A stretch of DNA of 20,000 bases from an uncultured virus (IMG/VR IMGVR_UViG_3300044613_002297) (Duplodnaviria; Heunggongvirae; Uroviricota; Caudoviricetes): the IMG/VR virus record IMGVR_UViG_3300044613_002297. One strand, written 5' to 3'. The notes beneath the pieces were generated by a model. That model was not told where the DNA came from. It ran no database searches and was given only the letters and a program-made list of their open reading frames with translations. Made by a program: the position numbers and the translations under genes. Of the stretch, positions 1-19,734 are shown one piece after another (the first letter of the stretch is position 1; every line of letters starts with the position of its first letter).

Positions 1-315
1 CTTCGCGAGCTGACGACCTCGCGAAACATCGCGACGCTTCTGGTCACGAACATAGCCAAGGGATGCGACGCGAGCACAGAGATCGGCAACATCGGCAAGG
101 GATCGAATCAGATTGACTTTGACGTAGACAACTTCCTCTTCGGGCATAGGTCCGGAGAGACCGGGGCCGACGGTGAGCTCAAGATTGAGTGGAAGTGCAA
201 GAAGTTGCGCCAGGGCCAAATGGCCGATGTCGAGCTTTGGTTTGAGGGCAAGTACCAGCTTTTCACGGACACGATGCCGGTCCCGTTCCCTGAGTTCGCC
301 GAAGGGAACTTCTGA
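1..315 (+). CDS. DnaB-like (SF4) replicative helicase, C-terminal part (5' truncated by window)
   Basis: Frame 1 is open from base 1 to TGA 313-315: LRELTTSRNIATLLVTNIAK...IGKGSNQIDFDVDNFLFGHR...IEWKCKKLRQGQMADVELWFEGKYQLF. This parallels the DnaB C-terminal pattern (LKELA..IPVIALSQ / SGSIEQDAD..FLYR / IIAKNRNG..V.L.F...Y..F). Not in the ORF track because it has no start codon. Confidence 0.75.
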   Translation, partial: LRELTTSRNIATLLVTNIAKGCDASTEIGNIGKGSNQIDFDVDNFLFGHRSGETGADGELKIEWKCKKLRQGQMADVELWFEGKYQLFTDTMPVPFPEFAEGNF

Positions 316-317
316 CC

Positions 318-953
318 ATGGCAAAGCGCAAGGTATCCAAGTCGCCAGCCAAGTCAGGCAAGGGCGAACTGCGTCGCCGCGTGCGGGCGTTTATCGAGGA
401 CGGCTCTCTGGCCCGCCTGGGTAGCGAGGGGCGTCTCGTGGCTCACTACGTCTTTGAGCGGGCCGATTGGTCTACCGGCGAGATCCGGTTCTCCATGCGG
501 CACGTCGCGCGGGTGATGAAGGTGAGCCCGACGGCTATTCGCAGGGGCGTCGAGCAGATGGTCCGCGAGGAAATCCTGGCAATCTCGGCAAAAAGAGAAG
601 GCTCCGGTCGGTCGAAATACACGGTCGTGGGGCGCACACACAGTGTGTCCACCCCGGACACGCCTTGTGCGCAGGCGCGCACACACAGTGTGTCCGGGGT
701 GGACACACCTCGTGTCCAGAGCGCGCACACAGTGTGTCCGGAGCGCGCACACAGTGTGTCCGGAGCGCGCACGCCTTGTGACCACTATTCAGTCTTATTC
801 AGTGGTATTCCAGTAAATACCACTGAAATAACCAATGCGGCTGACGCCACGGACGGTGAAGGACCGTCCGAGCCTCAGCCGCAGCCAGAGTTTTCGAGAG
901 GTTGCGCCGCCGCTCTTGCACGCACAGGCACACTTACGGAGGAGTCGCCATGA
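318..953 (+). CDS. Phage replication initiator-like protein (N-terminal winged HTH, internal iterons)
   Basis: HTH-like segment FSMRHVARVMKVSPTAIRRGVEQMVREEIL followed by low-complexity repeats (THSVS, TPC) encoded by DNA iterons. Lies next to the helicase; lambda O-like architecture. Confidence 0.7.
   Translation: MAKRKVSKSPAKSGKGELRRRVRAFIEDGSLARLGSEGRLVAHYVFERADWSTGEIRFSMRHVARVMKVSPTAIRRGVEQMVREEILAISAKREGSGRSKYTVVGRTHSVSTPDTPCAQARTHSVSGVDTPRVQSAHTVCPERAHSVSGARTPCDHYSVLFSGIPVNTTEITNAADATDGEGPSEPQPQPEFSRGCAAALARTGTLTEESP
637..780. repeat. Seven iteron-like repeats, core CAC-N5-GTG, ~22-bp period
   Basis: Cores start at 637, 659, 682, 704, 726, 748 and 770 (CACACAGTGTG x4, CACGCCTTGTG x2, CACACCTCGTG x1). 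A perfect 19-bp inverted repeat lies at 643-661 / 690-708. Confidence 0.9.
786..830. other. AT-rich putative DNA-unwinding element of the origin
   Basis: TATTCAGT (786, 796) and TATTCCAGT (806) at 10-bp period; 12-bp inverted repeat TTCAGTGGTATT (798-809) / AATACCACTGAA (816-827). Clearly AT-rich against a GC-rich background and directly after the iterons. Confidence 0.7.
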
Positions 954-1207
954 CGCACACGCACCTGCCACCGCTCACCGACACCCAGTCACGGGTGTTT
1001 GAGTTCATACGGGACCACAACGCCCGCACGAGGACCGGAGCCGGGTTCAGGCAGATCTGCGAGGCGTTCGGCTTTGCGAGCCCGAACGCCGCCTACGGGC
1101 ACTGCCTGTCGCTGCGGAAGAAAGGCTGGATCACGTTCGAGAGCAACCGCGCGAACACAATCATCCCGACCCTCGAATCGCTGGAGGCATCCGATGACGA
1201 GGCGTGA
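950..1207 (+). CDS. LexA-type DNA-binding domain protein (no peptidase domain)
   Basis: ATG 950 after GGAGG, overlapping the upstream stop (ATGA). LTDTQSRVFEFIRDH...FRQICEAFGFASPNAAYGHCLSLRKKGWI matches the LexA N-terminal wHTH pattern (LT.RQ.E..D.I...EIA...GF.SPNAA..HL..L.RKG.I). Confidence 0.8.
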   Translation: MTHTHLPPLTDTQSRVFEFIRDHNARTRTGAGFRQICEAFGFASPNAAYGHCLSLRKKGWITFESNRANTIIPTLESLEASDDEA

Positions 1208-1439
1208 AATCAACGCGATTCACTCGGCGTGCTTTCGTCGCTCGTGGGACGACGACACGGATGACGCCTCGCGGGTCGTCTTCGAGCAGGCTTCGCTGGC
1301 GATGACGGTGCTCAAGTCGCAGGTCAAGGACATGCGCGAGCGTCTCGCCCGTCAGGCGCTGCACCTGGAGCGGGCCGAACTCGACGCCGAGATCATGCGT
1401 CGCGCGGCATTCGGCGAGCAGAAAGGCGGGGCGGCATGA
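1194..1439 (+). CDS. Hypothetical protein (coiled-coil)
   Basis: ATG 1194 preceded by GGAGG; MTRREINAIH...QKGGAA; stop overlaps the next start (ATGA). Confidence 0.65.
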   Translation: MTRREINAIHSACFRRSWDDDTDDASRVVFEQASLAMTVLKSQVKDMRERLARQALHLERAELDAEIMRRAAFGEQKGGAA

Positions 1440-1699
1440 GCGAGCTCGCAATCATCGCAATCGGGATCGTGATCCAGTCGGCGACGTTCGCCCTCGGGAT
1501 CCTTGTTGGTGCGTCACTCAGGAGGAGAGGACATGACGACGGCAACGGCTACGAAGCGGCGAAGGAGTACTGGCATCACGCTACCGGCCGCCACGCTGAA
1601 GACAGCGCTCGCGGACGTGTCCGCAGCGGTGCCGACGCGACCGGCGAAGCCAGTGCTCGCGTGCATCCGAATTGGCGATGGCACACTCACGGCGACTGA
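1436..1699 (+). CDS. Hypothetical protein with N-terminal transmembrane segment
   Basis: Coupled ATGA start; hydrophobic MSELAIIAIGIVIQSATFALGILVGASLRRR. The 3' part overlaps dnaN out of frame. Confidence 0.5.
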   Translation: MSELAIIAIGIVIQSATFALGILVGASLRRRGHDDGNGYEAAKEYWHHATGRHAEDSARGRVRSGADATGEASARVHPNWRWHTHGD

Positions 1700-2654
1700 C
1701 CTCGAACTCCAGATCGCTGTCGAGATCGACTACCACGGCGAGCCGCTACTCCTGCCGTTCGCCCGGCTGCGTGCGATCCTCGCCGAGGCTCGTGCCGAGG
1801 AGGTGACGATCACGCCTGACGGCACGTCGTGCGTCGTGACGGCCGGGCGTGGCACGTGGCGGCTTCCGGTCGAGAGCGCTGACGAGTGGCCGACATGGCA
1901 GCACGAGCCGCTCAGAACGCTCGTGCGAGTCCCGTGCGATCAATTCGCCCGTGCCGTGAAGGGCTGCGTCTACGCGACGGATAACGACAGCAGTCGCTAC
2001 GCACTCGGTGCGGTGCTCATTGAGGTGCTCGGCGGCGACTGCTCGTTCGTGGCGACCGACGGGCGTCGGCTCTCGCACGTGGCGGTCGAGCACGACCAAG
2101 CGGTGGACGACGGTTCGGCGCTCGTCCCGGCTCGGGTGCTCGCATCGCTCGCGAGCGTGGCGGCTCGAGGCGACGACGCGGTGCAACTCGAGGCGAGCGA
2201 GCACGAGCTCGTCGCCACGCTGCCGGGGTGCGTCGTGACGGCCAGGCAGATCGCCGGGCGTTTCCCCCGCTGGCGTGACGTGCTGCCGAAGGACCGCGAG
2301 GGTGCGATCGAGACGGTGGTCGATCGCGACGAGCTCATCGCTGCGACCAGGGCGGCGGCGATCGTCACCAGCGAGCAGTCGAAGGGCGTGGATTTCACGT
2401 TCTCGGCCGACGGCGTGACGCTTCACGGGCAGTCGAGCGAGTACGGGCAGAGTGACGTGACGATCGAGGTCGTCAGCGGCGGCGACCCGGTCAAGGTGAA
2501 GCTCGATCCCGTGTTCGTCGTCGAGTGGCTCCGTGGCATCGCGACGGACGAGGGGCCGCACATCACGGTCGAGCTCGTGGACGCGCAGTCCGCGTGCGTG
2601 CTCCGCAACGGCGGCGTCTACACCGGCGTCATCATGCCGCTCTCGAACGACTGA
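1533..2654 (+). CDS. dnaN: DNA polymerase III beta sliding clamp
   Basis: ATG 1533 after AGGAGGAGAGG. Motifs KPVLACI, LTATDLE, YATDNDSSRYALGAVL, VATDGRRL, GRFPRWRDVLP and C-terminal VIMPL; ~373 aa. Confidence 0.95.
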   Translation: MTTATATKRRRSTGITLPAATLKTALADVSAAVPTRPAKPVLACIRIGDGTLTATDLELQIAVEIDYHGEPLLLPFARLRAILAEARAEEVTITPDGTSCVVTAGRGTWRLPVESADEWPTWQHEPLRTLVRVPCDQFARAVKGCVYATDNDSSRYALGAVLIEVLGGDCSFVATDGRRLSHVAVEHDQAVDDGSALVPARVLASLASVAARGDDAVQLEASEHELVATLPGCVVTARQIAGRFPRWRDVLPKDREGAIETVVDRDELIAATRAAAIVTSEQSKGVDFTFSADGVTLHGQSSEYGQSDVTIEVVSGGDPVKVKLDPVFVVEWLRGIATDEGPHITVELVDAQSACVLRNGGVYTGVIMPLSND

Positions 2655-2665
2655 GGAGGTGCAAC

Positions 2666-3010
2666 ATGGGACACCGCAGGATCACCGACGCTGCCCTGCT
2701 CTTTCGGCTCTGGCACGACGAGACGCTTCGTGTCGAAGACATCGCTGATCGGCTGCGCGTCACGCCGAACACCGTGACACGCACGGCACAGCGTTTCGGG
2801 CTCGCGAACCGCAACCGTGTCGTGAGCGAGATCCGCGAGCGTAAGGCGATCGAGGCGGTCGAGGACGACTCGACTGTCGTCGATCTTCGTCTCGACGCCT
2901 GGACCGAAGAGCGGGCCAGGCCGATCCGCGAGGGCTGGAGCGAGGAGGTTCGGTACGAGCGGCGCGCCCAGAAAGTTCAGCCGATCTGCTACGGCGGGGT
3001 GTTCGGATGA
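2666..3010 (+). CDS. GcrA-like HTH DNA-binding protein
   Basis: ATG 2666 after GAGGAGG. LLFRLWHDETLRVEDIADRLRVTPNTVTRTAQRFGL resembles the GcrA N-terminal HTH (L..LW..G.S...IA..L..TRN.V.....RLGL). Confidence 0.6.
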   Translation: MGHRRITDAALLFRLWHDETLRVEDIADRLRVTPNTVTRTAQRFGLANRNRVVSEIRERKAIEAVEDDSTVVDLRLDAWTEERARPIREGWSEEVRYERRAQKVQPICYGGVFG

Positions 3011-3150
3011 GCGCACCGCTCCTCTTCCTCGTCTCGCTGATCTACTGGGGCGTCGCGATCGAGCAGTGGTGGAAGGGCAGCCCTGCCGGGTTCGTCGTTT
3101 GGGCGAGCTACGGAATGGCGAACTGGGGACTGATGTGGATGACGAGGTGA
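3007..3150 (+). CDS. Small membrane protein (47 aa)
   Basis: Read by hand (below ORF-track cutoff): MSAPLLFLVSLIYWGVAIEQWWKGSPAGFVVWASYGMANWGLMWMTR*. Two hydrophobic segments; 4-nt overlaps with both neighbours. Confidence 0.65.
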   Translation: MSAPLLFLVSLIYWGVAIEQWWKGSPAGFVVWASYGMANWGLMWMTR

Positions 3151-3383
3151 CCGTGACCGACATCGTGACACGCCTGCGCCGGTGGACGCACGCGGTGGAC
3201 GCTGCGCCCGCGAGCGACTTGATGGACGAGGCGGCGGATGAGATTGAGCGTCTGCGGCTTACAGACGAGGAGCGTGAGGCGATTAAGGCTGGCATCTCAG
3301 CCTGCGAAGACATCGTCTACGGCGGTGCTACCGACCAAGAGGCGGCGGACACCATGCGGCGGTTGTTGGATCGGTTGAAGTGA
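3147..3383 (+). CDS. Hypothetical phage protein
   Basis: GTG at 3147 (or 3153); TDIVTRLRRW...DEAADEIERLRLTDEEREAI. Stop TGA lies inside the TGAGAAC box of attC-like site 1. Confidence 0.65.
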   Translation: MTVTDIVTRLRRWTHAVDAAPASDLMDEAADEIERLRLTDEEREAIKAGISACEDIVYGGATDQEAADTMRRLLDRLK

Positions 3384-3436
3384 GAACGCGCAGGATAAGC
3401 GGCGGCCTCGCCGTCCGCTTCATCCGCTGGTTCTGT
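3381..3436 (-). mobile_element. attC-like recombination site 1 (inverted relative to ORFs)
   Basis: Minus strand: ACAGAAC-CAGCG-GATGAAGC-GGACGGC GAG GCCGCC-GCTTATC-CTGCGC-GTTCTCA = R''/5 bp/8-bp L''/stem-loop/7-bp L'/6 bp/R', with two unpaired bases. Confidence 0.8.
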
Positions 3437-3461
3437 GAGCGTAGAGAAACGAGGTGAAGCG

Positions 3462-3752
3462 ATGAACGATCCGATTGCAGACAGCAAGCCATACGCGACG
3501 TTTGTCTTCAACCATGAAGGCGAGCAGTACGTCATGCGACAGGACTACGAGCGGCTGCGGGCGATGCTCACTTGGGTTCCAGTTGAGGAGCGGCTTCCTG
3601 ACCAAGTAGATGATGTTGTTGTCTGGCACCCAAGCAGGATCGGCACAGGCTGGGCGTGGTATGACGGCGACGGCAAGTGGTTCAGCGGAGACTATGAGGT
3701 GTTGGTTTCGCACTGGATGCCGTTTCCGGCACCGCCAACGGACGGCAAGTAG
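3462..3752 (+). CDS. DUF551-like protein (cassette ORF)
   Basis: ATG 3462 after GAGGTG; WVPVEERLP...VVVW...VSHWMPFPAPP is the typical DUF551 signature. Confidence 0.8.
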   Translation: MNDPIADSKPYATFVFNHEGEQYVMRQDYERLRAMLTWVPVEERLPDQVDDVVVWHPSRIGTGWAWYDGDGKWFSGDYEVLVSHWMPFPAPPTDGK

Positions 3753-3754
3753 CC

Positions 3755-3810
3755 ACAGAACGCACAGGATAAGCGGCGGCTCTGCCGTCCGCTTCATCCG
3801 CTGGTTCTAT
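3755..3810 (-). mobile_element. attC-like recombination site 2 (inverted relative to ORFs)
   Basis: Near-identical 56-bp copy of site 1: ACAGAACGCACAGGATAAGCGGCGGCTCTGCCGTCCGCTTCATCCGCTGGTTCTAT. Differences occur only in the loop, one spacer base and the outer R-box bases. Confidence 0.8.
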
Positions 3811-3841
3811 TTTTCGAGGGGTAGTTTAGGTGGTGCAGAAC

Positions 3842-4087
3842 ATGAGCGAGAACGCTCAAGGCCCGCGTTCGAGTCGCGGCTCCTCGATTCGGAAATCAGA
3901 CCGGCAACGGATGGCACGGTTGGATCGTGGGATTGCTTGGCTGGACGCTCGGATGGCAAGCGTGCTGGTGTGGTTCGACAAGAAGGAATACGCCAGACTC
4001 GACACGAAGCGGGCGTCGATGGATCGGCAGCGGAAAGAACTTCGGCTCCGCATGAAGGGGACGAAGGCGGTCGGGAAGAACAAATAG
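3842..4087 (+). CDS. Basic hypothetical protein (cassette ORF)
   Basis: ATG 3842 after AGGTGG; R/K-rich and helical-looking; stop TAG lies within the ATAGAAC box. Confidence 0.6.
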   Translation: MSENAQGPRSSRGSSIRKSDRQRMARLDRGIAWLDARMASVLVWFDKKEYARLDTKRASMDRQRKELRLRMKGTKAVGKNK

Positions 4088-4136
4088 AACTTGTGTTTCT
4101 ACTGTCCGCGTATCACGCCGCTTCCGTGTATCACGC
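4084..4136 (-). mobile_element. attI-like site with two direct repeats
   Basis: Minus strand: GTAGAAA-CACAA-GTTCTAT (cf. attI1 CCCTAAA-ACAAA-GTTRRRY). Preceded on that strand by two 14-bp direct repeats (+ strand TCCGYGTATCACGC at 4105-4118 and 4123-4136). Confidence 0.6.
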
Positions 4137-4137
4137 T

Positions 4138-4170
4138 AACTGCAAGGCCACTAGCCTCGCGTGCCATGAT
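4138..4170 (+). promoter_or_regulatory. Putative phage promoter, class A (AACTGCAAG-N14-GTGS-YAnnnT), copy 1
   Basis: AACTGCAAG 4138-4146, GTGC, CATGAT 4165-4170, then ATG 5 nt later (leaderless geometry). Same spacing at 10453 and 19700. Confidence 0.6.
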
Positions 4171-4175
4171 CGGGC

Positions 4176-4967
4176 ATGCGACTCTTGGCGACGCTCATCG
4201 CCGTGTCGGCCCTCGCGGCATCCGCCGCCACGATCGATGACTCAAAAGGCGACAGCCGATACCTCGACTACGGTGCGACGTTCGCGGGATACGTCGTGCG
4301 GGTCACCGGAAACAACGCCGAAGGCGTTCCGCTCGCGGGCTCTGGCACGCTCATATCGCCGCACTGGGTGCTCACGGCGGCACACGTCCCGCACGAGATG
4401 ACGGCGGTGACCGTCGTGCTCGGCGGCGAGCGTCTCGCGTGCGACCGTGTCGTGCGGCATCCCGAATGGGAAGGCGTCCACGGCTGGCACGACATCGCCT
4501 TGGTGCGGCTCGGACAGCACAGGCACGCAGACGTGTACCCGATGCTCGCTGACGGCACCGAGCGGCTCGGCAGCGTCGCTGCCGCTGCGGGGTATGGCAT
4601 GACGGGCACGCTCACTCGCGGGCTTACGGGAGGCGACCAGCGGCTGCGGGCGGGGACTTGCGTCCTCGGGTCGATCGAGCACGGCGTGTACGTCTGCCCG
4701 ATTCGCAGGACGCCCGACGCTGGCCCGCTCCCTGCGTGCATCGCGCCGGGCGACTCAGGCGGCCCGCTCTGGGCAACTGCGATCGACGGCAGCACGCGGC
4801 TCGTCGGCGTGAACTCCTACGTCGCGAGGGTCGGCGGGAAGACGCGGTACGTCCTCGGCGAGGAGTCGGGGCACACCCGCGTGGTGCTCTACCTCGACTG
4901 GATTCGCAGCGTTGTCGGCGAACTTGACTCGCCATGCACGATGCCGGGATGCCAACCGCCACGCTGA
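4176..4967 (+). CDS. Secreted trypsin-like serine protease (S1 family)
   Basis: Signal peptide MRLLATLIAVSALAASA; catalytic-triad motifs GTLISPHWVLTAAH, HDIALVRL and GDSGGP. Confidence 0.92.
   Translation: MRLLATLIAVSALAASAATIDDSKGDSRYLDYGATFAGYVVRVTGNNAEGVPLAGSGTLISPHWVLTAAHVPHEMTAVTVVLGGERLACDRVVRHPEWEGVHGWHDIALVRLGQHRHADVYPMLADGTERLGSVAAAAGYGMTGTLTRGLTGGDQRLRAGTCVLGSIEHGVYVCPIRRTPDAGPLPACIAPGDSGGPLWATAIDGSTRLVGVNSYVARVGGKTRYVLGEESGHTRVVLYLDWIRSVVGELDSPCTMPGCQPPR
4924..4948 (+). promoter_or_regulatory. Putative promoter, class B (TTGAC-N7-GCACSATGC-N4-ATG), copy 1
   Basis: TTGAC tcgccat GCACGATGC cggg ATG(4949); identical geometry at 17830. Confidence 0.45.
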
Positions 4968-5170
4968 GATTCCGCCTGCCCGAGGACGAGGGCGAGTTCC
5001 GCGACTGCGTTGAGGGCTCGCGGGCGAAGTCGATCGTCATCCTGCTCGATGACCACCTCGCCACCGAGATCAAGGCTGGCGAGCTCGGCCACGATGTCGA
5101 GGTGGCGTACCAAGAGCTCCGCGAGTGGCTGCGGAGTCAGTGTGCGGAGCACGGGCTCGATCTGCTGTGA
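4949..5170 (+). CDS. Hypothetical phage protein
   Basis: MPTATLRFRLPEDEGEF... resembles a common small phage protein type (ATL.F.LPED..EF); GTGA overlap with rusA. Confidence 0.7.
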   Translation: MPTATLRFRLPEDEGEFRDCVEGSRAKSIVILLDDHLATEIKAGELGHDVEVAYQELREWLRSQCAEHGLDLL

Positions 5171-5565
5171 CCATCACGCTCTCAATCCCCGGCGATCCGG
5201 TGCCGCAACCGCGCCCGCGAGTGTCAACGCAGGGCGGGTTCGCTCGCGCGTACGTACCGAAGAGCCATCCAGTTCACGCCTACCGACAGGCGATCGCATT
5301 AGCGGCAAGCGTCGCCGGGCTCCGCGAGCAGGCGAAACCCGTGAGCGTCGTCATCGACGCCGTGTTCGCCCGGCCCAAGTCGCACATGAACAAAGCAGGC
5401 GTGAAGCCAACCGCACCGGCGTTGCCGCGACCCGACGTGGACAACCTGGGCAAGGCGGTCCTTGACGCGCTTCAGGACGTGATGGGCGACGACACGCACG
5501 TCGCACGGCTCGTCGTCGAGAAATCGTGGGGCACAGAAGGTCGCACGACGGTGCGGATCACATGA
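5167..5565 (+). CDS. rusA: RusA-family Holliday junction resolvase
   Basis: IPGDPVPQPRPR, FARPKSH, RPDVDNLGKAVLDALQ..MGDDTHV...EKSW contain the RusA catalytic Asp/Lys motifs. Confidence 0.92.
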   Translation: MTITLSIPGDPVPQPRPRVSTQGGFARAYVPKSHPVHAYRQAIALAASVAGLREQAKPVSVVIDAVFARPKSHMNKAGVKPTAPALPRPDVDNLGKAVLDALQDVMGDDTHVARLVVEKSWGTEGRTTVRIT

Positions 5566-6158
5566 GCGTCGCGATCTTCACGAGCGCGGGTGTCGGAACG
5601 CCGTGGGCAGAACTCACGGTGGCGAACCGTCTCGCGTACTGCGTGCGGCACGACTACACGATGGTGTGGCGGTGCGAGGCGTACTCGCAGGCGTTGTCGA
5701 ACTTCTGGCGGATCGGGCAACTGCTCGAGCATCACGACCTCGTGTGGACGCTCGATGCCGACTGCGTCATCACGAACCTGACGACCCGGATCGAGGACGT
5801 GCCCGATCTCGGGCCGCACATGACGATCTGCGAGGAGGGTATCGGCGCGCACGCCCTGGTGAACGGCGGGTCGATCGTGTGGCGTGCAACTCAAGGCACG
5901 CATTCACTTCTCGACGAGATCGTCGCCGCAGAGAACGAGTGGCGATCGATGGAATGGAACGTCCAGCAGTGGCTGATGAAGCACCGCGAGCGGCTGGCGG
6001 ATCGCATGACGATCGCGCCGAAGCGGGCTTTCAACTCTGTTCATCTCGGACAGACGAACCACTGGCAGCACGGCGACCTCGTCTACCACCCGTGCGGCAA
6101 TCCGCCCGACATCCGATGCGAGTTGATCCGCGAGCACCTAGGGCGGGTGGTGACATGA
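5562..6158 (+). CDS. Glycosyltransferase, GT34/GMA12-MNN10-like
   Basis: NRLAYCVRHDY, VWTLDADCVITN (DxD), VNGGSIVWR, QQWL, RAFNS, WQHGDLVYH. Confidence 0.75.
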   Translation: MSVAIFTSAGVGTPWAELTVANRLAYCVRHDYTMVWRCEAYSQALSNFWRIGQLLEHHDLVWTLDADCVITNLTTRIEDVPDLGPHMTICEEGIGAHALVNGGSIVWRATQGTHSLLDEIVAAENEWRSMEWNVQQWLMKHRERLADRMTIAPKRAFNSVHLGQTNHWQHGDLVYHPCGNPPDIRCELIREHLGRVVT

Positions 6159-6724
6159 GCTATGAGTTCACGCACGATTGGTTCTCGATGCGTACGAACG
6201 CATGGCGTGAGCACGTGTTGCCACGCCTGCCGCACCCGCGCCGCTGGCTGGAAATCGGCTCGCACGAGGGCCGCTCGGCGTGTTGGATGCTCGATGAGGC
6301 GCTGAAGCCCGGCGACACGATCACGTGCGTCGATACGTGGGGCGGCCCCTTCGACGGGTACTCGGCTGAGAATCCCGAGGCGCGGTTCGACGCGAACGTC
6401 GCGGGTCGTGCCGAGAAGTTTCGCGGACGCTCGCACGTGTTCCTCGCCCGCGCTCTCGCCGAGCATCGGCTCTTCGATGGCATCTACATCGACGGCGGGC
6501 ACGAGGGCCGCACGGTGCTAGAAGACACGGTGCTCGCGTGGCGGCTGCTCAAGGTCGGTTCTGTCATCGTCTGGGACGACTACGAATGGCGTGACCCGCA
6601 TCCGCACCGGCAGCACCTGCCGACGCCGAAGCCTGCGATCGATGCGTTCCTCGCGCTCTACGGTCAATACCTCGACGTGCTGCACCGTGAGTGGCAAGTC
6701 ATCGCCGTGAAGCGGGGCGAGTGA
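6155..6724 (+). CDS. Class I SAM-dependent methyltransferase (Methyltransf_24-like)
   Basis: FTHDWFS, LEIGSHEGRSACW, CVDTW, FDGIYIDGGH, LLKVGSVIVWDDYEW. Confidence 0.88.
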   Translation: MSYEFTHDWFSMRTNAWREHVLPRLPHPRRWLEIGSHEGRSACWMLDEALKPGDTITCVDTWGGPFDGYSAENPEARFDANVAGRAEKFRGRSHVFLARALAEHRLFDGIYIDGGHEGRTVLEDTVLAWRLLKVGSVIVWDDYEWRDPHPHRQHLPTPKPAIDAFLALYGQYLDVLHREWQVIAVKRGE

Positions 6725-7330
6725 ATGGACATCTACGCGATCACGACCAGCGTCAACTACGCGGACTACCTGTCGATTTGTCTCAACTGCCTCGCCGGGC
6801 AGGTATCCGGCGTCTGCGTTGTCACCGAGGCGAATGACGCGAGCGTGGACGTGGCGCAGCGATTCGAGGCGACGCCGCTGATCTATGACGGGTGGCACGC
6901 TGACGGCGCTGCGTTCAATAAAGCGGGCGCGATCCGGTTCGCACAGGAGCACCTACACGCCGCGTACCCGGATGCGTGGTATCTGCTGATCGACGCCGAC
7001 GTGATGGTCCCGACGAACGCTCGCGAGATCATCGAGCAGGACGCGACGAATCCCGAGACGCTCTACGGTGCGCGGCGGGTCGATTTCCACACGCCCGAGC
7101 GGCTCATGGAGGGCAAGCCGAACAAGGCATACGCCTCGATGTTCGCCGGATTCTTTCAGCTCTACCGGCGGCACGTGCTGTACCCGGAGTGGTCACGCAC
7201 GGCCGAGCTCTGTGACCTGTCGTTCGCGAAGCAGTTCGCGTCGTGCGTCGTGCTGCCGATGACGGTCGGTCACTGCGGCGTCGAGGCGGTCAACTGGGAG
7301 GGGCGGCGATCGCCGCTCTGGAAATGCTGA
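6725..7330 (+). CDS. GT-A fold glycosyltransferase
   Basis: TSVNYADYL, FNKAGAI, WYLLIDADVMVP (DxD), LYGARR, GFFQLY, NWEGR. Confidence 0.75.
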   Translation: MDIYAITTSVNYADYLSICLNCLAGQVSGVCVVTEANDASVDVAQRFEATPLIYDGWHADGAAFNKAGAIRFAQEHLHAAYPDAWYLLIDADVMVPTNAREIIEQDATNPETLYGARRVDFHTPERLMEGKPNKAYASMFAGFFQLYRRHVLYPEWSRTAELCDLSFAKQFASCVVLPMTVGHCGVEAVNWEGRRSPLWKC

Positions 7331-8097
7331 CGCTCTTCACGCTCGTCTTGAACGGGCAGCCGTACATCGAGCAGCACCTCGCGACGCTGCGCCAGCTCAC
7401 GATCCCGTGGCAGTGGCGGATCGTCGAGGGCGTCGCGGCACCGACGCACTGCACCGCGTGGTGCCAGACGATGCCCGACAAGTGGCACCGGGACTTCGTC
7501 AGCGTGGACGGGACGCACGAGTACGTGCGAGCAGTAAACAACACGCCGAACGTCACCTGCTCGTGGAGGCACTCACCGTGGGACGGCAAGATCGCGATGA
7601 TCGCTCGCGCCCTCGAAGGCGTCGAGGGCGGCGTCGTCATGCAGGTTGACAGCGACGAGCTCTGGCAGGCGTGGCAGTTGGAGCGGATCTACTGGCTGAT
7701 GCTCCAGCAACCGGTGGCGACGGCCGCACGGTTCGCGTGTCGTTACTGGGTCGGACCGTCGAAGCTCCTGACGAGCACGGCGGGATGGGCACGCGGCGAC
7801 CTTGAGTGGCTGCGAGCGTGGCGTTGGGGACCGGGCATGCGGTTCCTCCGACACGAGCCGCCGATCGTTACCGGGTTTGACCGGTGTGTGAGCATCGAAA
7901 GCACCGAAGCGGCGGGGCTCGTGTTCGATCACTACGCGTACGTGACCGAGCAGCAGATCGCGATGAAGCAGGACTACTACGGGTACACGGGACTGACCGA
8001 GGCGTGGCATCGGCTCCAGGCGACGCCGGGGCCGGTGAACCTCCAAGAGTTCTTCCCGTTTGCGATCGGTGCGACGGCGGATGACGTGGGGATATGA
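7324..8097 (+). CDS. GT2-like glycosyltransferase
   Basis: MLTLFTLVLNGQPYI, IVEG, SVDGTHEY, MQVDSDELW (DxD), FDHYAYV. Confidence 0.75.
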   Translation: MLTLFTLVLNGQPYIEQHLATLRQLTIPWQWRIVEGVAAPTHCTAWCQTMPDKWHRDFVSVDGTHEYVRAVNNTPNVTCSWRHSPWDGKIAMIARALEGVEGGVVMQVDSDELWQAWQLERIYWLMLQQPVATAARFACRYWVGPSKLLTSTAGWARGDLEWLRAWRWGPGMRFLRHEPPIVTGFDRCVSIESTEAAGLVFDHYAYVTEQQIAMKQDYYGYTGLTEAWHRLQATPGPVNLQEFFPFAIGATADDVGI

Positions 8098-14926: not shown

Positions 14927-16585
14927 ATGCCCACAACAGTCAAGATTCGCCGCAGCGGCACAGCGTCGGCCACGCCGTCGGCGCTTGAGCACGGCGAGAT
15001 CGCGATCAACTACGCCGATGGCAAGGTGTTCTGGAAGAACGCGAGCGATGTGATCACGTCGTTCACGTTTCAGAGCTACGCCCTCGCGTCGCACACGCAC
15101 GCAGCGTCGGACATCACCTCCGGCACGCTGGACGCCGCACGCCTGCCTCTTGCGACGACGGGTGCCGCCGGTGCGGTGATCGTCGGCACGGGGCTCGGCG
15201 TGTCGTCAGGCACGGTGTCGGTGACCTACGGGACCAGTAGCACCTCAGCCTGTCGCGGCGATGACAGTCGATTGAGTGACACCCGCACGCCGACCGATGG
15301 CAGCGTGACGACGGCGAAACTTGCCAACGACGCCGTCACCTACGCCAAGATTCAAAACGTCTCCGCCACCGACCGCCTGCTCGGTCGCTCGTCTGCGGGT
15401 GCAGGCGACGTGGAGGAGATCACCTGCACGTCGTTCGGTCGCTCCTTGATTTCGTCAGCCGATGCCCCTGCGGCACGCACCACGCTCTCCGTGCAGCCGA
15501 CGGCGAGTCCTACGTTCACTGGCACCGCAACTCTGGCCGCAGGAGCGATCGTCACCAGCACGGCGGCAAACTCTGGCCTATCGGTTGGCGGCAGCAGCAA
15601 GCAGGTTCGTTTGAGTTTCGCGCCCAGCGAAGGTACAGCGCCAACGTCTGCCGTGACAGGGACGGCGTATATCGTCTCTGCCGACTTCGGCAGCGGCTAC
15701 ACGGCAATGCGATTTGAGGCGACGGAGTTCGTCTTCGCTCACGGCATCTTTGCGTCTGAGGTTTCGACGACGTTCAAGAACAACGGCGACATCGTCATGT
15801 CGCGTGGGCAACTGCTCGCCGACGACATCGCCACAGCCAACAGCGTGGCGTATGCCTTTGATGGCGATACCAACACCGGAGTAGGCCGGGCGGGCGCGGA
15901 CATTCTGACGGTGGTGACGGGCGGCGCCGAGCGGGTGCGTGTTGATGCGTCGGGGAATGTGGGGATTGGCCGGGACAGCCCTAACGTCAAATTAGAAGTC
16001 GCTGGAAACGTTGGCGCGTACGGGACTCAGCCCGCTGTTCATTTCAGAGTAAACAGCAACACTCTGCGATTTGCATTGTTTGCAAACGACGCCGATAGCC
16101 TTCATGTTGGCAGGTATGACTCGTCAGGAGGCTATGTTGACTCGCCGCTACAAATATCCAGAACCAGCGGCAATGTAGTCACTCCAGCGGTTTACTCCGC
16201 CGCAGTCGGCGGAACGAACAGACCCGTATACGTTGATAGTGGTGGTCTTCTCGGCTACGTCTCCTCCATTCGCGAGAGCAAGACCGACATCGTCACGCTG
16301 GACGACGTGTCATGGCTTTCCGCGCTCTCGCCCGTCTCGTACCGCTACCGAAAGCGGAACGCCGACGGCACCTACAGCGACGAGGCCGACGGCGTCACCG
16401 ACTACGGTCTGATCGCTGAGGACGTGGAAGCGGTCAAGCCGGAACTCTGCTTCTACGACGACGTGGACGGCGAGCCGCAACTGCGTGGCGTCACGTACTC
16501 AAAACTGATCACGCCGATGCTGCGGTACATCCAGCAATTAGAGGCACGCATCGCCGCACTAGAGGAGCGACTGAGTCATGGCTGA
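14927..16585 (+). CDS. Tail fibre/spike with C-terminal S74-type intramolecular chaperone
   Basis: HTHAASDITSGTLDAARLP, DSRLSDTRTP, VTTAKLANDAVTYAKIQNV, ERVRVDASGNVGIG; C-terminal SSIRESKTDI...LSPVSYRY...YGLIAEDV...GVTYSKL plus coiled coil. Confidence 0.88.
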   Translation: MPTTVKIRRSGTASATPSALEHGEIAINYADGKVFWKNASDVITSFTFQSYALASHTHAASDITSGTLDAARLPLATTGAAGAVIVGTGLGVSSGTVSVTYGTSSTSACRGDDSRLSDTRTPTDGSVTTAKLANDAVTYAKIQNVSATDRLLGRSSAGAGDVEEITCTSFGRSLISSADAPAARTTLSVQPTASPTFTGTATLAAGAIVTSTAANSGLSVGGSSKQVRLSFAPSEGTAPTSAVTGTAYIVSADFGSGYTAMRFEATEFVFAHGIFASEVSTTFKNNGDIVMSRGQLLADDIATANSVAYAFDGDTNTGVGRAGADILTVVTGGAERVRVDASGNVGIGRDSPNVKLEVAGNVGAYGTQPAVHFRVNSNTLRFALFANDADSLHVGRYDSSGGYVDSPLQISRTSGNVVTPAVYSAAVGGTNRPVYVDSGGLLGYVSSIRESKTDIVTLDDVSWLSALSPVSYRYRKRNADGTYSDEADGVTDYGLIAEDVEAVKPELCFYDDVDGEPQLRGVTYSKLITPMLRYIQQLEARIAALEERLSHG

Positions 16586-16892
16586 CATCCCCACGCTGTT
16601 TGCAAGCGAGCCGCTGGACGTGCCTGCAAAGGTGTTCGACAAGTTGTGGGTGCGGGAAATCGTTCTGTCATCGCCGACAGGCGGCGAAGCCGAAGCCCGC
16701 GTGACGCTCGTCCGATTCCGCACCACCGACGACGGAGTGGAGGAGGCACCAGCCGAGCCGGTGCGGCTCCACGTCCGCGACCTGCTCGCTGGAGCGGAGG
16801 CCGACGCTGACCTCGCGGCTGCGGTTGGGGCGTTGATGAACTACGTCGCGAAGGTGGGCGTGGCAGAGGGCGTGGTCGCGGCGGGCGAGTGA
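16578..16892 (+). CDS. Hypothetical protein (possible fibre assembly factor)
   Basis: SD GAGGAG upstream; immediately follows the fibre gene. Confidence 0.65.
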   Translation: MADIPTLFASEPLDVPAKVFDKLWVREIVLSSPTGGEAEARVTLVRFRTTDDGVEEAPAEPVRLHVRDLLAGAEADADLAAAVGALMNYVAKVGVAEGVVAAGE

Positions 16893-17828
16893 ATGGTCGT
16901 CCTGTCGTCGATCCTGCGTCGCGACGAACCGCAACGCGAGCGACGCGAGCGGGTGCCGCTGCCCGGCGAGCTCGCCGTCGTCTGCGTGTTCTGGAATCCT
17001 GCCGGGTGGCGATCGCTGCGGCGGAACTACCTCCGGTTCCTCCACGAGATGCGGTGGTGGGGCGTGCCGACGTTCAACGTGGAGCTCGCCTACGAAGGGC
17101 AGGACTACACGTGCGACGACGCGTGGATCAAGGTGAGGGGCGGCGACCGGAACGTGCTCTGGCAGAAAGAGCGCCTCATCAATCTCGCCGTCGAACGCCT
17201 GCCCGACCGCTTCGACAAGGTGGCGTGGATCGACGCCGACATGGTGTTTCTCGACCACCAGTGGCCCGAGCGGCTGTGCCGAACGCTCGAAGAGTGGCCG
17301 GTCGTGCAGTGCTGGAACGAGTGGCACTGTGCCGGGCCTGACGGGCAGATCGAGGGCAAGAAGTTCTGCGTCGGGCATCGCTGCGAAAGGTATCTGAGCG
17401 AGCAGAACTGCTGCCCTGGCGGTGCGTGGGCGGCACGACGCGACATCTGGCCGCTCTACGATCGGCACATCGTCGGCAGCGGCGATTCGATGATGGTCGA
17501 GGGATGGACGAACCACCAAGTGAAACGCTGTCTGCGACTGATGAACGAGCCGATGGCGCGGCACTTCCGCGAGTGGTCGGAAGTGGCGTACGAGAAGGTC
17601 CGAGGCGAGATCGCCTGCCTGCCCGGTGACGCGATGCACCTGCACCACGGGAGCCTCGCTGACCGCCAGTATCACTCCCGGTGGTTCCCCGTCGTCAACG
17701 GCGGCTATGACCCGGCGACGCACGTCGAGGTGGACGAGAACGGGCTGCTTCGATGGACGGACTCGGCACCCGAGACGCTCGTCGAGTGGGTGCGGGGCTA
17801 CTTCGCCAGCCGGAACGAGGACGGCTGA
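16893..17828 (+). CDS. GT-A fold glycosyltransferase-like protein
   Basis: VFWNP.GWRSLRRNY, VELAY, LWQKERLINLA, VAWIDADMVF (DxD), PGGAWAARR, IVGSGD, HLHHGS..RQY. Confidence 0.7.
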   Translation: MVVLSSILRRDEPQRERRERVPLPGELAVVCVFWNPAGWRSLRRNYLRFLHEMRWWGVPTFNVELAYEGQDYTCDDAWIKVRGGDRNVLWQKERLINLAVERLPDRFDKVAWIDADMVFLDHQWPERLCRTLEEWPVVQCWNEWHCAGPDGQIEGKKFCVGHRCERYLSEQNCCPGGAWAARRDIWPLYDRHIVGSGDSMMVEGWTNHQVKRCLRLMNEPMARHFREWSEVAYEKVRGEIACLPGDAMHLHHGSLADRQYHSRWFPVVNGGYDPATHVEVDENGLLRWTDSAPETLVEWVRGYFASRNEDG

Positions 17829-17829
17829 G

Positions 17830-17854
17830 TTGACACGTCCCGCACCATGCGGGC
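17830..17854 (+). promoter_or_regulatory. Putative promoter, class B, copy 2 (leaderless fcl)
   Basis: TTGAC acgtccc GCACCATGC gggc ATG(17855); no SD before fcl. Confidence 0.45.
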
Positions 17855-18781
17855 ATGGACATCTCAACCAAGCGAATCCTCGTCACCGGCGGTGCCGGGT
17901 TTCTCGGCAAGGCGGTCTGCCGCGTGCTGCACAGTCGCGGATGCCGCCACGTGATCGTGCCTCGCAGGGTCGCGTGCGACCTGACCAGCGAAGAGGACAC
18001 GATCGACCTGTTCGACGATCACCGGCCCGAAGTCGTCCTGCACCTCGCGGCCGAAGTCGGCGGCATCGGGGCGAACATGGCGACGCCTGGGCGGTTCACC
18101 TACGCCAATCTCGCGATGGGGCTGCACGTCATCGAGCAGTGCCGACGGTTCGAGGTCGAGAAGGTCGTCGTCGTCGGGACGGTGTGCAGTTATCCACTCG
18201 ACCCGCCAGTGCCGTTCGTCGAGTCGGACCTGTGGAATGGCTACCCCGAAACGACGAACGCCGGGTACGGCGTGGCGAAGCGAGCGGTGTACGAACTGCT
18301 GAAGCAATACCACAAGCAGTACTCGCTCCCCGGTGCCGTTGTGATTCCGACGAACCTCTACGGGCCTTTTGATAACTTCGATCCGGCATCGTCGCACGTC
18401 ATCCCGGCGATGATTCGCCGATTCTGCCGCACCGATCCGGTGACGCTCTGGGGCACGGGCTGTGCGAGCCGGGAGTTCTTGCACGTCGATGACGCTGCCG
18501 AAGGCATCGTGCGAGCAGCGGAGACCGTGACCACGCCCGATCCGATCAACCTGGGCGGCGGCGGCGAGGTGCAGATGAGGAAGTTGGCCGAGATGATCGC
18601 TGGCGAGTGCAGCTACATGGGCGAGATCCGCTGGGACTCATCGAAGCCCGACGGTCAGCCGAGGCGTGCGGTCGATGCCACGCGAGCCCGCGAAATCCTC
18701 GGGTGGACGCCGAAGGTCAGCCTACAGAACGGGATCGCCGAGACGGTCTCGTGGTGGAGGGAGCAATGCGCGTCGCTCTGA
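17855..18781 (+). CDS. fcl: GDP-L-fucose synthase
   Basis: [78 protein letters not shown]. Confidence 0.95.
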
Positions 18782-19734
18782 TCACCGGCATCACCGGGCA
18801 GGACGGCTCCTATCTCGCTGAGCTCCTGCTCGCGAAGGGCTATATCGTCCACGGTATCGTGCGGCGGTCGAGCACCTTCGGCACGCAGCGGATTGAGCAC
18901 ATCTTCAACCGGCTCAACCTGCACTACGGCGACGTGACCGACGGCGGCGCGATGGCACGGCTCGTCGCCGAGATCGAGCCCGACGAGCTCTACAACCTCG
19001 CGGCACAGAGTCACGTGCGGGTGTCGTTCGACCAGCCCGCGTACACGGCGGAAGCGGTCGGCATCGGAGCGCTCAACGTCCTCGAAGCGGCCCGTGTCGT
19101 GCCTGGATGCCGGGTCTACCAAGCGTCCTCCTCCGAGATGTACGGGCAGGTCGCCGAGACGCCGCAGCGGGAGACGACGCCGTTTCGGCCGAGATCGCCG
19201 TACGGCGTGGCGAAGGTCTACGCTCACTGGATCACGGTGAACTACCGCGAGAGCTACGGGATGCACGCCTCGTGCGGCATCCTGTTCAACCACGAGAGCC
19301 CGAGGCGGGGCGAGACGTTCGTGACCCGCAAGATCGTGCGGGCAGCGGCACGCATCGCCAGCGGCATCCCCGAGACGCTGTACCTAGGCAACCTCGACGC
19401 CCGGCGGGACTGGGGCCACGCAGCAGACTACGCCGAGGCGATGTGGCTCATGCTGCAACAGGACGAGCCCGACGACTACGTCATCGCGACCGGCGAGACG
19501 CACAGCGTGCGGGAGTTCTGCGAGCGGGCGTTTGCCCACGTGGGGCTGGACTACCGCGACCACGTCGAGATCGACCCGAGGTACTACCGACCGGCCGAGG
19601 TGGACCTGCTACAGGGCGACGCGAGTAAGGCACGCCGAGCGCTAGGCTGGGTGCCGAGGGTGACGTTCGATGGGTTGGTGGCGGGCATGATGGACGCAGA
19701 ACTGCAAGCGATGCGGGGGCACGTGGTAGCGTGA
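18766..19734 (+). CDS. gmd: GDP-mannose 4,6-dehydratase
   Basis: [86 protein letters not shown]. Confidence 0.97.
19700..19732 (+). promoter_or_regulatory. Putative phage promoter, class A, copy 3
   Basis: AACTGCAAG 19700-19708, N14, GTGG, TAGCGT 19727-19732, then ATG 19739 six nt later. Confidence 0.6.

Follow-up and report, generated by a model that had tools for sequence, protein, structure and literature searches.

Are the small genes that lie between repeated hairpins in phage genomes mobile, and if so, what kind of system moves them? This question is raised by a locus in a 20,000-nt stretch of DNA from an uncultured virus of the Caudoviricetes (IMG/VR record IMGVR_UViG_3300044613_002297; the whole stretch is referred to as the window). 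The window is phage DNA with all of its genes on the + strand, and between positions 3377 and 4136 it contains two near-identical imperfect palindromes, each of which is followed by one small open reading frame (ORF). A preliminary description, made from the letters alone, took the locus for an integrase-less, integron-like array with two cassettes, two attC-like sites and an attI-like site. After comparison with related phage contigs (for which we use handles beginning with L or G) we are confident that the locus holds two mobile cassettes of one gene each, in a short array that belongs to an integron-like, hairpin-based system of site-specific recombination. Very probably this system is common to a large group of uncultivated, mostly temperate freshwater phages. 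What emerges from the comparison of sequences is a hairpin family with covariation, complementary unit ends, one-sided array ends, an empty site, varied contents and one cassette in two contexts; from these we infer a circular intermediate, the folding of a single strand and an enzyme.

The two palindromes were found where they had been placed in the preliminary description. They form a 52-nt direct repeat of 92% identity (3383-3434 versus 3757-3808), and a 33-letter core pattern matches the window twice, with 0.00 matches expected on basis of 200 shuffles. Both copies fold as DNA, with energies of -17.7 and -16.2 kcal/mol for the + strand and of -17.3 and -16.4 kcal/mol for the - strand (z -3.2 to -4.3), and as RNA they form an imperfect hairpin of -28 to -32 kcal/mol. 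The attC-like hairpin 1 (3377-3440, + strand) has its AAC at 3385-3387 and its GTT at 3430-3432, an L box that reads GATAAGCGG / CCGCTT-C-ATC, a bulged C and a bulged T on the 3' arm and a loop of 3 nt; the outer half of its basal stem is formed by the last bases and the stop codon (..GTGAG) of the preceding gene (3147-3383). Hairpin 2 (3751-3814, + strand) has its AAC at 3759-3761 and its GTT at 3804-3806. When scored with the covariance model R1 that is introduced below, hairpins 1 and 2 obtained 79.7 bits (E 1.4e-20) and 76.3 bits (E 1.4e-19), respectively, and they were the only two copies in the window, the next best score being 16 bits. Cassette 1 (3387-3760, + strand, 374 bp) comprises hairpin 1, a Shine-Dalgarno leader and a gene (3462-3752) that carries a DUF551 domain (E 1.2e-9), and cassette 2 (3761-4089, + strand, 329 bp) comprises hairpin 2 and an 85-aa gene (3830-4087) of no known family; the claim of one small ORF after each hairpin was thus accurate. 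In unit 1 the box GTTCTGTG (3430-3437) is exactly complementary to CACAGAAC (3754-3761), and in unit 2 the box GTTCTATTT (3804-3812) is exactly complementary to AAATAGAAC (4082-4090). The two units therefore have 8 and 9 complementary end bases, typical of the family pattern, and their ends read GTT^CTGTG...CACAG^AA and GTT^CTATTT...AAATAG^AA (here and below a caret marks a boundary).

The hairpins of the window are members of a large family. With the loop unconstrained, the exact core was recovered from 57 stretches of IMG/VR viral contigs, and a relaxed pattern in which the outer parts were fixed from 54 IMG/VR stretches, among which a compensatory change of A-T to C-G was seen. The hairpins are always co-directional with the genes and lie between a stop codon and the next ribosome-binding site, while the neighbouring genes are diverse. 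An alignment of 70 distinct copies (A1) was used to build R1, and with this model many more same-strand hairpins, of ~57, 64-66 and 97 nt and a few hundred bases apart, were found in the flanks of the relatives. They have a common plan that consists of AAC, a spacer of 5-6 nt, a 9-nt L'', a variable middle, a 10-nt L' with one bulged C, a spacer of 5 nt and GTT. A scanner written to this plan, and applied to the loci L004-L115 and the window with overlapping loci kept, reported 337 hairpins on the gene strand versus 2 on the other strand and 3 in the reversed-sequence controls. Measured from AAC to GTT, the 158 distinct hairpins form three size classes, of 40-43, 47-50 and 76-83 nt, with a single further hairpin of 122 nt. 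AAC, GTT and the bulged C do not vary, and covariation of the L box gives at least 12 compensatory types, so that the attC-type layout originally read from two copies (AAC, spacer, covarying L box, bulge, variable middle, GTT) is confirmed across the family. The 64-nt class is nearly identical across many contigs, and the outer left and right flanks of one site assort independently. Most copies continue into CTGTGAGCG; the T run after copy 2 (ATTTTT) is specific to one cassette. As a side observation, the middle of the 76-83 nt hairpins (e.g. L008:4052-4149 and L052:2548-2645) often resembles a ribosome site with start codon (..CAGGAGCATCGCATGAC..), as if the start of a gene were located inside the hairpin.

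In the relatives, arrays contain 1 to 7 hairpins per locus at a spacing of ~260-900 nt, and the 290 inter-hairpin segments fall into 195 clusters. The units yielded 124 distinct ORF products with a median length of 91 aa, the ORF filling ~90% of the unit (one unit was without ORF); the median gaps were 22 nt between GTT and start codon and 6 nt between stop codon and AAC. The earlier observation that the boxes are complementary within the unit and not within the site is exact in the window and extends to these relatives. The 6 nt after the upstream GTT and the 6 nt before the downstream AAC of one unit pair at a mean of 4.81 out of 6 (n=124), with a run of at least 4 in 100 of the 124 cases, whereas the two flanks of one hairpin pair at 2.99 out of 6 (n=191), with such a run in 29 of the 191. 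Shuffled pairing gave 2.93 +/- 0.10, with a maximum of 3.31 in 2000. The complementary end pairs differ widely in sequence between units, and the same within-unit/within-site outcome was obtained with alignment A1. According to the classical integron argument, complementarity of this kind would be the signature of cassettes that pass through a circle. In addition, when copies of one unit occur in different contexts, the similarity stops exactly at GTT^ on the left and at ^AAC on the right.

The arrays end in a one-sided way. In 42 of 54 loci, the first five bases of the unit behind the last hairpin return as reverse complement at its end, where AAC and then non-hairpin sequence follow. The corresponding mirror test, made at the opposite end of the array, was positive in 8 of 46, and the control patterns gave 0 and 0. 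In a repeat on more loci 46 of 59 arrays ended so, on the gene-downstream side only. This polarity (42/54 versus 8/46) bears out the proposed inversion of the array relative to its genes. By reading of the alignment, 33 of the 44 distinct terminal sequences share the site type of the window, with the consensus AAC^(C/T)(A/T)GTGTTT.T.CGG.. and then two direct repeats CG.ATA.C ~20 nt apart. In the window this attI-like docking site is located at 4086-4136 (+ strand), with the AAC (4088-4090) followed by TTGTGTTTCTACTG and then by direct repeats at 4105-4118 and 4123-4136 that read TCCG(C/T)GTATCACGC. No fold was found in the docking site of the window upon DNA folding (z -1.2 and -1.3). It is a discrete block of ~51 nt: the contigs L123, L124 and L143 share only 4086-4136 with the window, the DNA to the right being different. 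The attI-like site that had been suspected has thus turned out to be conserved, discrete, non-folding and located at the same end of most arrays. In relatives of the G004 type, sugar-nucleotide genes (GDP-mannose dehydratase and epimerase) and part of the tail-fibre region are inverted directly past the docking site (window 15800-19656 compared to L123, L124 and L143), so that the genome must have undergone a rearrangement with a breakpoint where the 51-nt site ends. Array termini of at least two further kinds were observed, AAC^CATGTAATTGACCCC.. and AAC^AAGTATTCGCCGGCATC.. (L071, L042, L100; L024, L099, L105), which suggests that several docking-site families exist. The docking site (AAC, 6-7 nt spacer, ..TATGCGG) and the 5' arm of the hairpin (AAC, 6 nt, GATAAGCGG) are alike, and one enzyme could therefore read both.

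A scan with the docking-site repeats gave 24 stretches, and in contigs with a backbone like that of the window the number of hairpins at the locus is 0, 1, 2 or 4; related phages with different cassettes at this position, as anticipated in the preliminary description, do exist. The empty allele that it had predicted is present in L129. This contig matches the window at 3007-3387 (96.3%) and 4086-5549 (90.7%), with nothing in between; its junction reads ..TTGAAGTGAGAAC^TTGTGTTTCTAC.., and the end of the 78-aa gene abuts the docking site. Given that L129 is without exactly the two cassettes, and that the insert of the window has a hairpin first and a gene last, a cassette must consist of a hairpin and the following gene, with edges at AA^C. 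Cassette 2, hairpin and gene together, recurs in L079 with other neighbours, and the similarity runs from AGAAC to AAATAGAAC, with AAC on both sides. The cassette boundaries proposed earlier (374 bp, 3387-3760, and 329 bp, 3761-4089) thereby receive support from L129 as well as L079. The alternative assignment, in which the hairpin belongs to the preceding gene (Model A), was ruled out by the array ends (8/46 versus 42/54), the empty allele of L129 and the comparison with L079. Polarity and cassette edges at AA^C of the gene strand together assign the hairpin to the next gene downstream. In L122 the docking site comes directly after a 47-aa ORF, and the 78-aa gene is absent. This small gene (3147-3383, + strand; no Pfam family above cut-off), which bounds the far end of the array, is backbone in the window; its homologues in relatives (L052, L123, L130, L137) are found inside arrays or beside the docking site, flanked by hairpins.

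The stretch of the window was also found in 24 lake or freshwater metagenome runs from 24 studies, among the matches listed, and one of these runs may be its own source. The hairpins (3388-3448 and 3754-3814) are where contigs from four lake metagenome runs break, and the summed depth there is 3 to 12 times that of the flanks; the hairpin family must therefore be much more abundant in these samples than the phage of the window. Loose contig ends in the four runs pass from AAC or GTT to different hairpins and cassettes, and a contig of run X3 departs from the window directly after the AAC at 3761 to continue in a different hairpin. In run X5 one contig skips exactly 329 nt, i.e. cassette 2 (3756 to 4086, with 5 ambiguous letters), with a depth of 4.4 and a side of 25, which is below the caution line and makes for weak evidence. 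A joint of 3446 to 3746, present in all four runs, was considered as a deletion and rejected, as other cassettes share both ends.

The cargo of the arrays was inventoried with Pfam. Around 75% of the 124 products (93) had no match, and DUF551 was found in 19. Dam and RusA each occurred above cut-off in single products, two products matched the C5 methylase family (one above cut-off, the other with 20.5 bits versus 22), and single products were obtained with MazG, HAD hydrolase, HTH_17 and MUG113/T5orf172, besides a few further weak matches. The leader behind the hairpin (window 3432-3461: CTGTGAGCGTAGA, then Shine-Dalgarno and ATG) is common to many unrelated cassettes (e.g. L014, L015, L024, L054). 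The shared leader CTGTGAGCGTAGA extends well past the 5-6 nt that the R box needs, and it may represent a common translation or processing signal.

On basis of these patterns a tentative route can be drawn for the cassettes. The unit would be composed of C-hairpin-GTT, leader, small gene and AA. It would leave as a circle, the joined ends of which would complete a basal (R) stem of 8-9 bp around AAC/GTT; the predicted circle junctions are ..CACAGAA^C-hairpin (374 bp) and ..AAATAGAA^C-hairpin (329 bp). Entry would take place at the double-stranded docking site (4086-4136), with exchange at AA^C of the gene strand. As the docking site is fixed, new cassettes would pile up at the downstream end of the early phage operon, and operon transcription would express them. 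On the gene strand the 5' arm carries the AAC and the 3' arm both bulged bases, C and T. In the account of attC anatomy given by Nivina et al. 2016, from which our description of attC derives, the recombined bottom strand, whose R' contains 5'-AAC-3', is cleaved between A and C and carries the extrahelical bases on the arm opposite AAC (PMC5027507). With AAC on the 5' arm and the bulges on the opposite arm, the + strand has the bottom-strand geometry of integrons, which makes the genes reversed with respect to integron cassettes. The polarity of the array, with the docking site at the 5' end of the minus 'top' strand, agrees independently with this geometry.

Which enzyme could be responsible? 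No recombinase gene or homologue was found in the window, and in that sense the designation integrase-less stands. For the phage as such it may not hold: record G005, which is 99% identical to window 1-7400, encodes a 382-aa tyrosine recombinase ~8.2 kb to the left of the window start. A PF00589 protein is present in 5 of 5 related contigs, and the recombinases of G002, G004, G005, L023 and L068 are mutually 33-50% identical. In L023 and in contigs of the G004 type this gene closely precedes the array, and in L068 it ends ~100 nt from the docking site. The two phage integrases that were tested match only models of the XerD/XerC/XerA type, far below cut-off, and the spacing between the catalytic Lys and His-x-x-Arg (63 and 60 residues) leaves, when set against the spacings of IntI1 and XerD, no room for an insertion of the IntI type. 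This extra segment of IntI is held to be necessary for the recombination of hairpins. When the 287-aa integrase was compared with the sequences in the PDB, nothing reached E<=0.01. We tentatively favour the phages' own Xer-like tyrosine recombinase as the acting enzyme, with some reserve; another host enzyme, such as XerCD, is a lesser candidate, and a host integron integrase is somewhat unlikely. It is conceivable, although we would not count on it, that the freshwater phages run an integron-type capture system of their own, in which a small Xer-like tyrosine recombinase without the extra segment of IntI exchanges folded single-stranded hairpins with a double-stranded docking site, builds backward arrays where an early operon ends and passes hundreds of small accessory genes from phage to phage. 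It would then represent either an ancestral form of the integron or something that was invented independently of it.

Outside the array, the window encodes the end of a DnaB-like helicase, a beta clamp, a helix-turn-helix protein, small ORFs, a trypsin-like protease, glycosyl- and methyltransferases, tail fibres and sugar-nucleotide enzymes. The trypsin-like serine protease gene (4176-4967, + strand; Pfam Trypsin, E 2e-14) is part of the backbone and lies just past the docking site. Among GenBank phages no DNA match was obtained for window 2500-5500, and the array of a relative gave a single 88-nt match at chance level; the beta clamp has relatives in phages at <=25% identity only. There is consequently no cultured relative among them. 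The best non-hairpin score with R1 (16.4 bits) was at window 649-702 on the minus strand, and window 643-708 has an inverted match of 82% in G005 (6711-6776, +); the latter is possibly an unrelated inverted repeat within the ORF at 318-953.

Several other explanations of the locus have to be considered. One holds that the units are ordinary bacterial integron cassettes, in the form of clusters of attC sites lacking integron-integrases (CALINs), that were taken from a host chromosomal integron and are maintained by the host IntI, with the phage as a mere carrier. Working attC sites in phage CALINs are indeed documented in the phage section of Qi et al. 2023 (PMC9892861), and the window is without a recombinase gene. 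We nevertheless consider this explanation unlikely, as the R box consensus fails in 129 of 130 units and all genes run backwards, an orientation that is described, in the part of Nivina et al. devoted to attC structure, as never observed in mobile or chromosomal integrons (PMC5027507). The cargo is moreover of a phage type, with DUF551 in 19 of 124 products next to DNA methylases, RusA and MazG. Furthermore, the exact core was present in only one stretch of 185,579 species genomes, on a 3.3-kb contig of a metagenome-assembled genome; no IntI above cut-off was found in this genome (24 bits versus 265), and none of the 94 other genomes of its order, 95 in total, has the hairpin. A different possibility is that the hairpins are boundary repeats at which general homologous recombination shuffles modules without a site-specific enzyme, in the manner of the PeSLs (promoter/stem-loop repeats). 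These are intergenic promoter/terminator stem-loops that flank small variable early genes in the hyperplastic regions of T4-type phages and are thought to be homology-based. The near-identical 64-nt class offers homology across contigs and the outer flanks of a site assort independently, both as this explanation would have it. Homology alone, however, predicts neither complementary unit ends of many sequences, nor a one-sided array end at a special non-hairpin site, nor breaks fixed at the 3-nt AAC/GTT between hairpins that are unlike in sequence and length. Moreover, a simple scan for promoter-like (sigma-70) sites gave 0 in 2400-4400. We therefore regard shuffling by homology as highly improbable.

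The hairpins might also act at the level of RNA only, as terminators, RNase III-type processing sites or mRNA stabilisers, the remainder being the descent of tandem paralogues. On the strand that is transcribed, each of them follows a stop codon and precedes the next ribosome site, copy 2 is directly followed by ATTTTT and DUF551 paralogues occur in many units. The terminator scan, however, gave 0 sites in 2400-4400, most copies lack a T run and continue with CTGTGAGCG, and the gathering search of the window against Rfam returned nothing. Since an RNA function does not explain the end complementarity, the docking site and the exact empty allele, there is very little to be said for it as the whole explanation; an added effect of the hairpins on RNA may exist. 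Finally, the units could be moved as single strands by a hairpin-recognising HUH transposase. Members of the IS200/IS605 family have subterminal imperfect hairpins and form single-strand circles, features with which hairpin-borne units would agree. Here, however, there is one hairpin per unit and not two, and a dedicated docking site with direct repeats; Y1_Tnp (PF01797) was found in 0 of 5 related phage genomes. This last explanation is scarcely credible.

Some observations weigh against the reading as mobile integron-like cassettes, or at least against parts of it. Counting gives weak support for a link between a hairpin and the following gene. At a DNA identity of at least 80% the comparison stands at 1/2 versus 0/2 informative pairs, which is too few. 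At the family level, the upstream hairpin type is common to 98 pairs versus 43.5 +/- 10.2 after shuffling (reached in 0 of 2000), and the downstream type to 69 pairs versus 54.1 +/- 11.9 (reached in 230 of 2000), a weak linkage. After removal of the 48-nt class upstream (30/153) and downstream (26/160) are alike, and the upstream hairpins of units 33, 18, 19 and 8 differ between contigs. Taken together, the counts weakly favour the combination of a hairpin and the following gene. For the IntI in trans that the preliminary description had envisaged, the related phages offered no candidate: none of 5 genomes matched TIGR02249 (IntI) at E<=0.01, nor was this model among the families matched by the two tested phage integrases. 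No junction of a circular cassette was seen in the lake metagenome contigs of the four runs. The R box, GTT-CT-S.., departs from that of integrons, as had been remarked before; GTT plus 4 nt fits GTTRRRY in 1 of 130 units and 4 nt plus AAC fits RYYYAAC in 2 of 130. The loop and bulge bases on the strand with bottom geometry are pyrimidines, unlike the recombined strand of integrons, of which the corresponding bases are reported to be purine-rich in the attC account cited above (PMC5027507). Lastly, all evidence stems from metagenome contigs and from a scanner of our own, and the loci were collected via one hairpin class or one docking-site type, which makes the sample non-random. As neither IntI nor the integron R box was found when tested for, we do not call the locus an integron; it is a variant of the integron kind.

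If the reading is correct, it provides a concrete site-specific mechanism for the turnover of the small 'ORFan' early genes behind phage mosaicism, and it would extend cassette capture in integron style beyond bacterial IntI systems. Both hairpins, the docking site of 51 nt and the candidate family of enzymes lend themselves to a standard attC x attI assay, and the cassettes, with DUF551, DNA methylases, MazG, RusA and ~75% unknowns, amount to a naturally pre-sorted library of phage accessory genes. Should the enzyme be an Xer-like integrase, this would bear on the origin of the integron integrase from Xer recombinases.

How does the system relate to known ones? With the PeSLs it shares conserved intergenic stem-loop repeats beside small variable early genes, but PeSLs are without AAC/GTT cores, within-unit end complementarity and docking site. 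A connection with the Xer systems is suggested by the weak XerD/XerC/XerA matches of the Xer-like candidate enzyme. Phages of the CTX type integrate at dif, where a folded single strand mimics the duplex site, and pdif modules are likewise Xer-dependent units. What moves in CTX and pdif, however, is an entire phage or a plasmid module, and arrayed one-gene cassettes with hairpins of their own are not known there. The likeness to integrons goes furthest. In both there is one promoterless small gene per cassette and a folding site with invariant AAC/GTT, R and L boxes, a partly unpaired spacer, bulges opposite AAC and a middle that varies in length. In both, the ends complete an R box only within the cassette, and arrays grow from a double-stranded docking site with two direct repeats. 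The resemblance of the docking site to DR1/DR2 of attI1, as depicted in a figure legend of Qi et al. 2023, is by layout only (PMC9892861). The differences from integrons, apart from the R box and the pyrimidines, are that the phage genes are all on the strand with bottom geometry and read towards the docking site, that there is no IntI and no module of intI and the cassette promoter Pc beside the docking site, and that the arrays are found within the phage early operon. A search of the literature, to which surveys of attC in viral collections and supplements did not belong, gave no report of reversed cassettes, a phage docking site or a non-IntI enzyme. The closest published counterparts, as far as the sections cited here go, are the phage CALINs of Qi et al. 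2023, who described integron components in 21 phages, including 17 CALINs, with canonical attC sites identified by IntegronFinder, 5 of 6 tested sites being recombined by IntI1 (PMC9892861). Their section 3.4 on phage CALINs describes no docking site, and for two phages it gives cassettes oriented as in bacterial arrays (PMC9892861). What these CALINs have in common with the present locus are attC-type arrays in phages without a neighbouring integron integrase and DNA methyltransferases in the cargo (in the sections mentioned; PMC9892861), whereas the arrays described here form a large family with a site consensus of its own, a docking site of its own and reversed genes.

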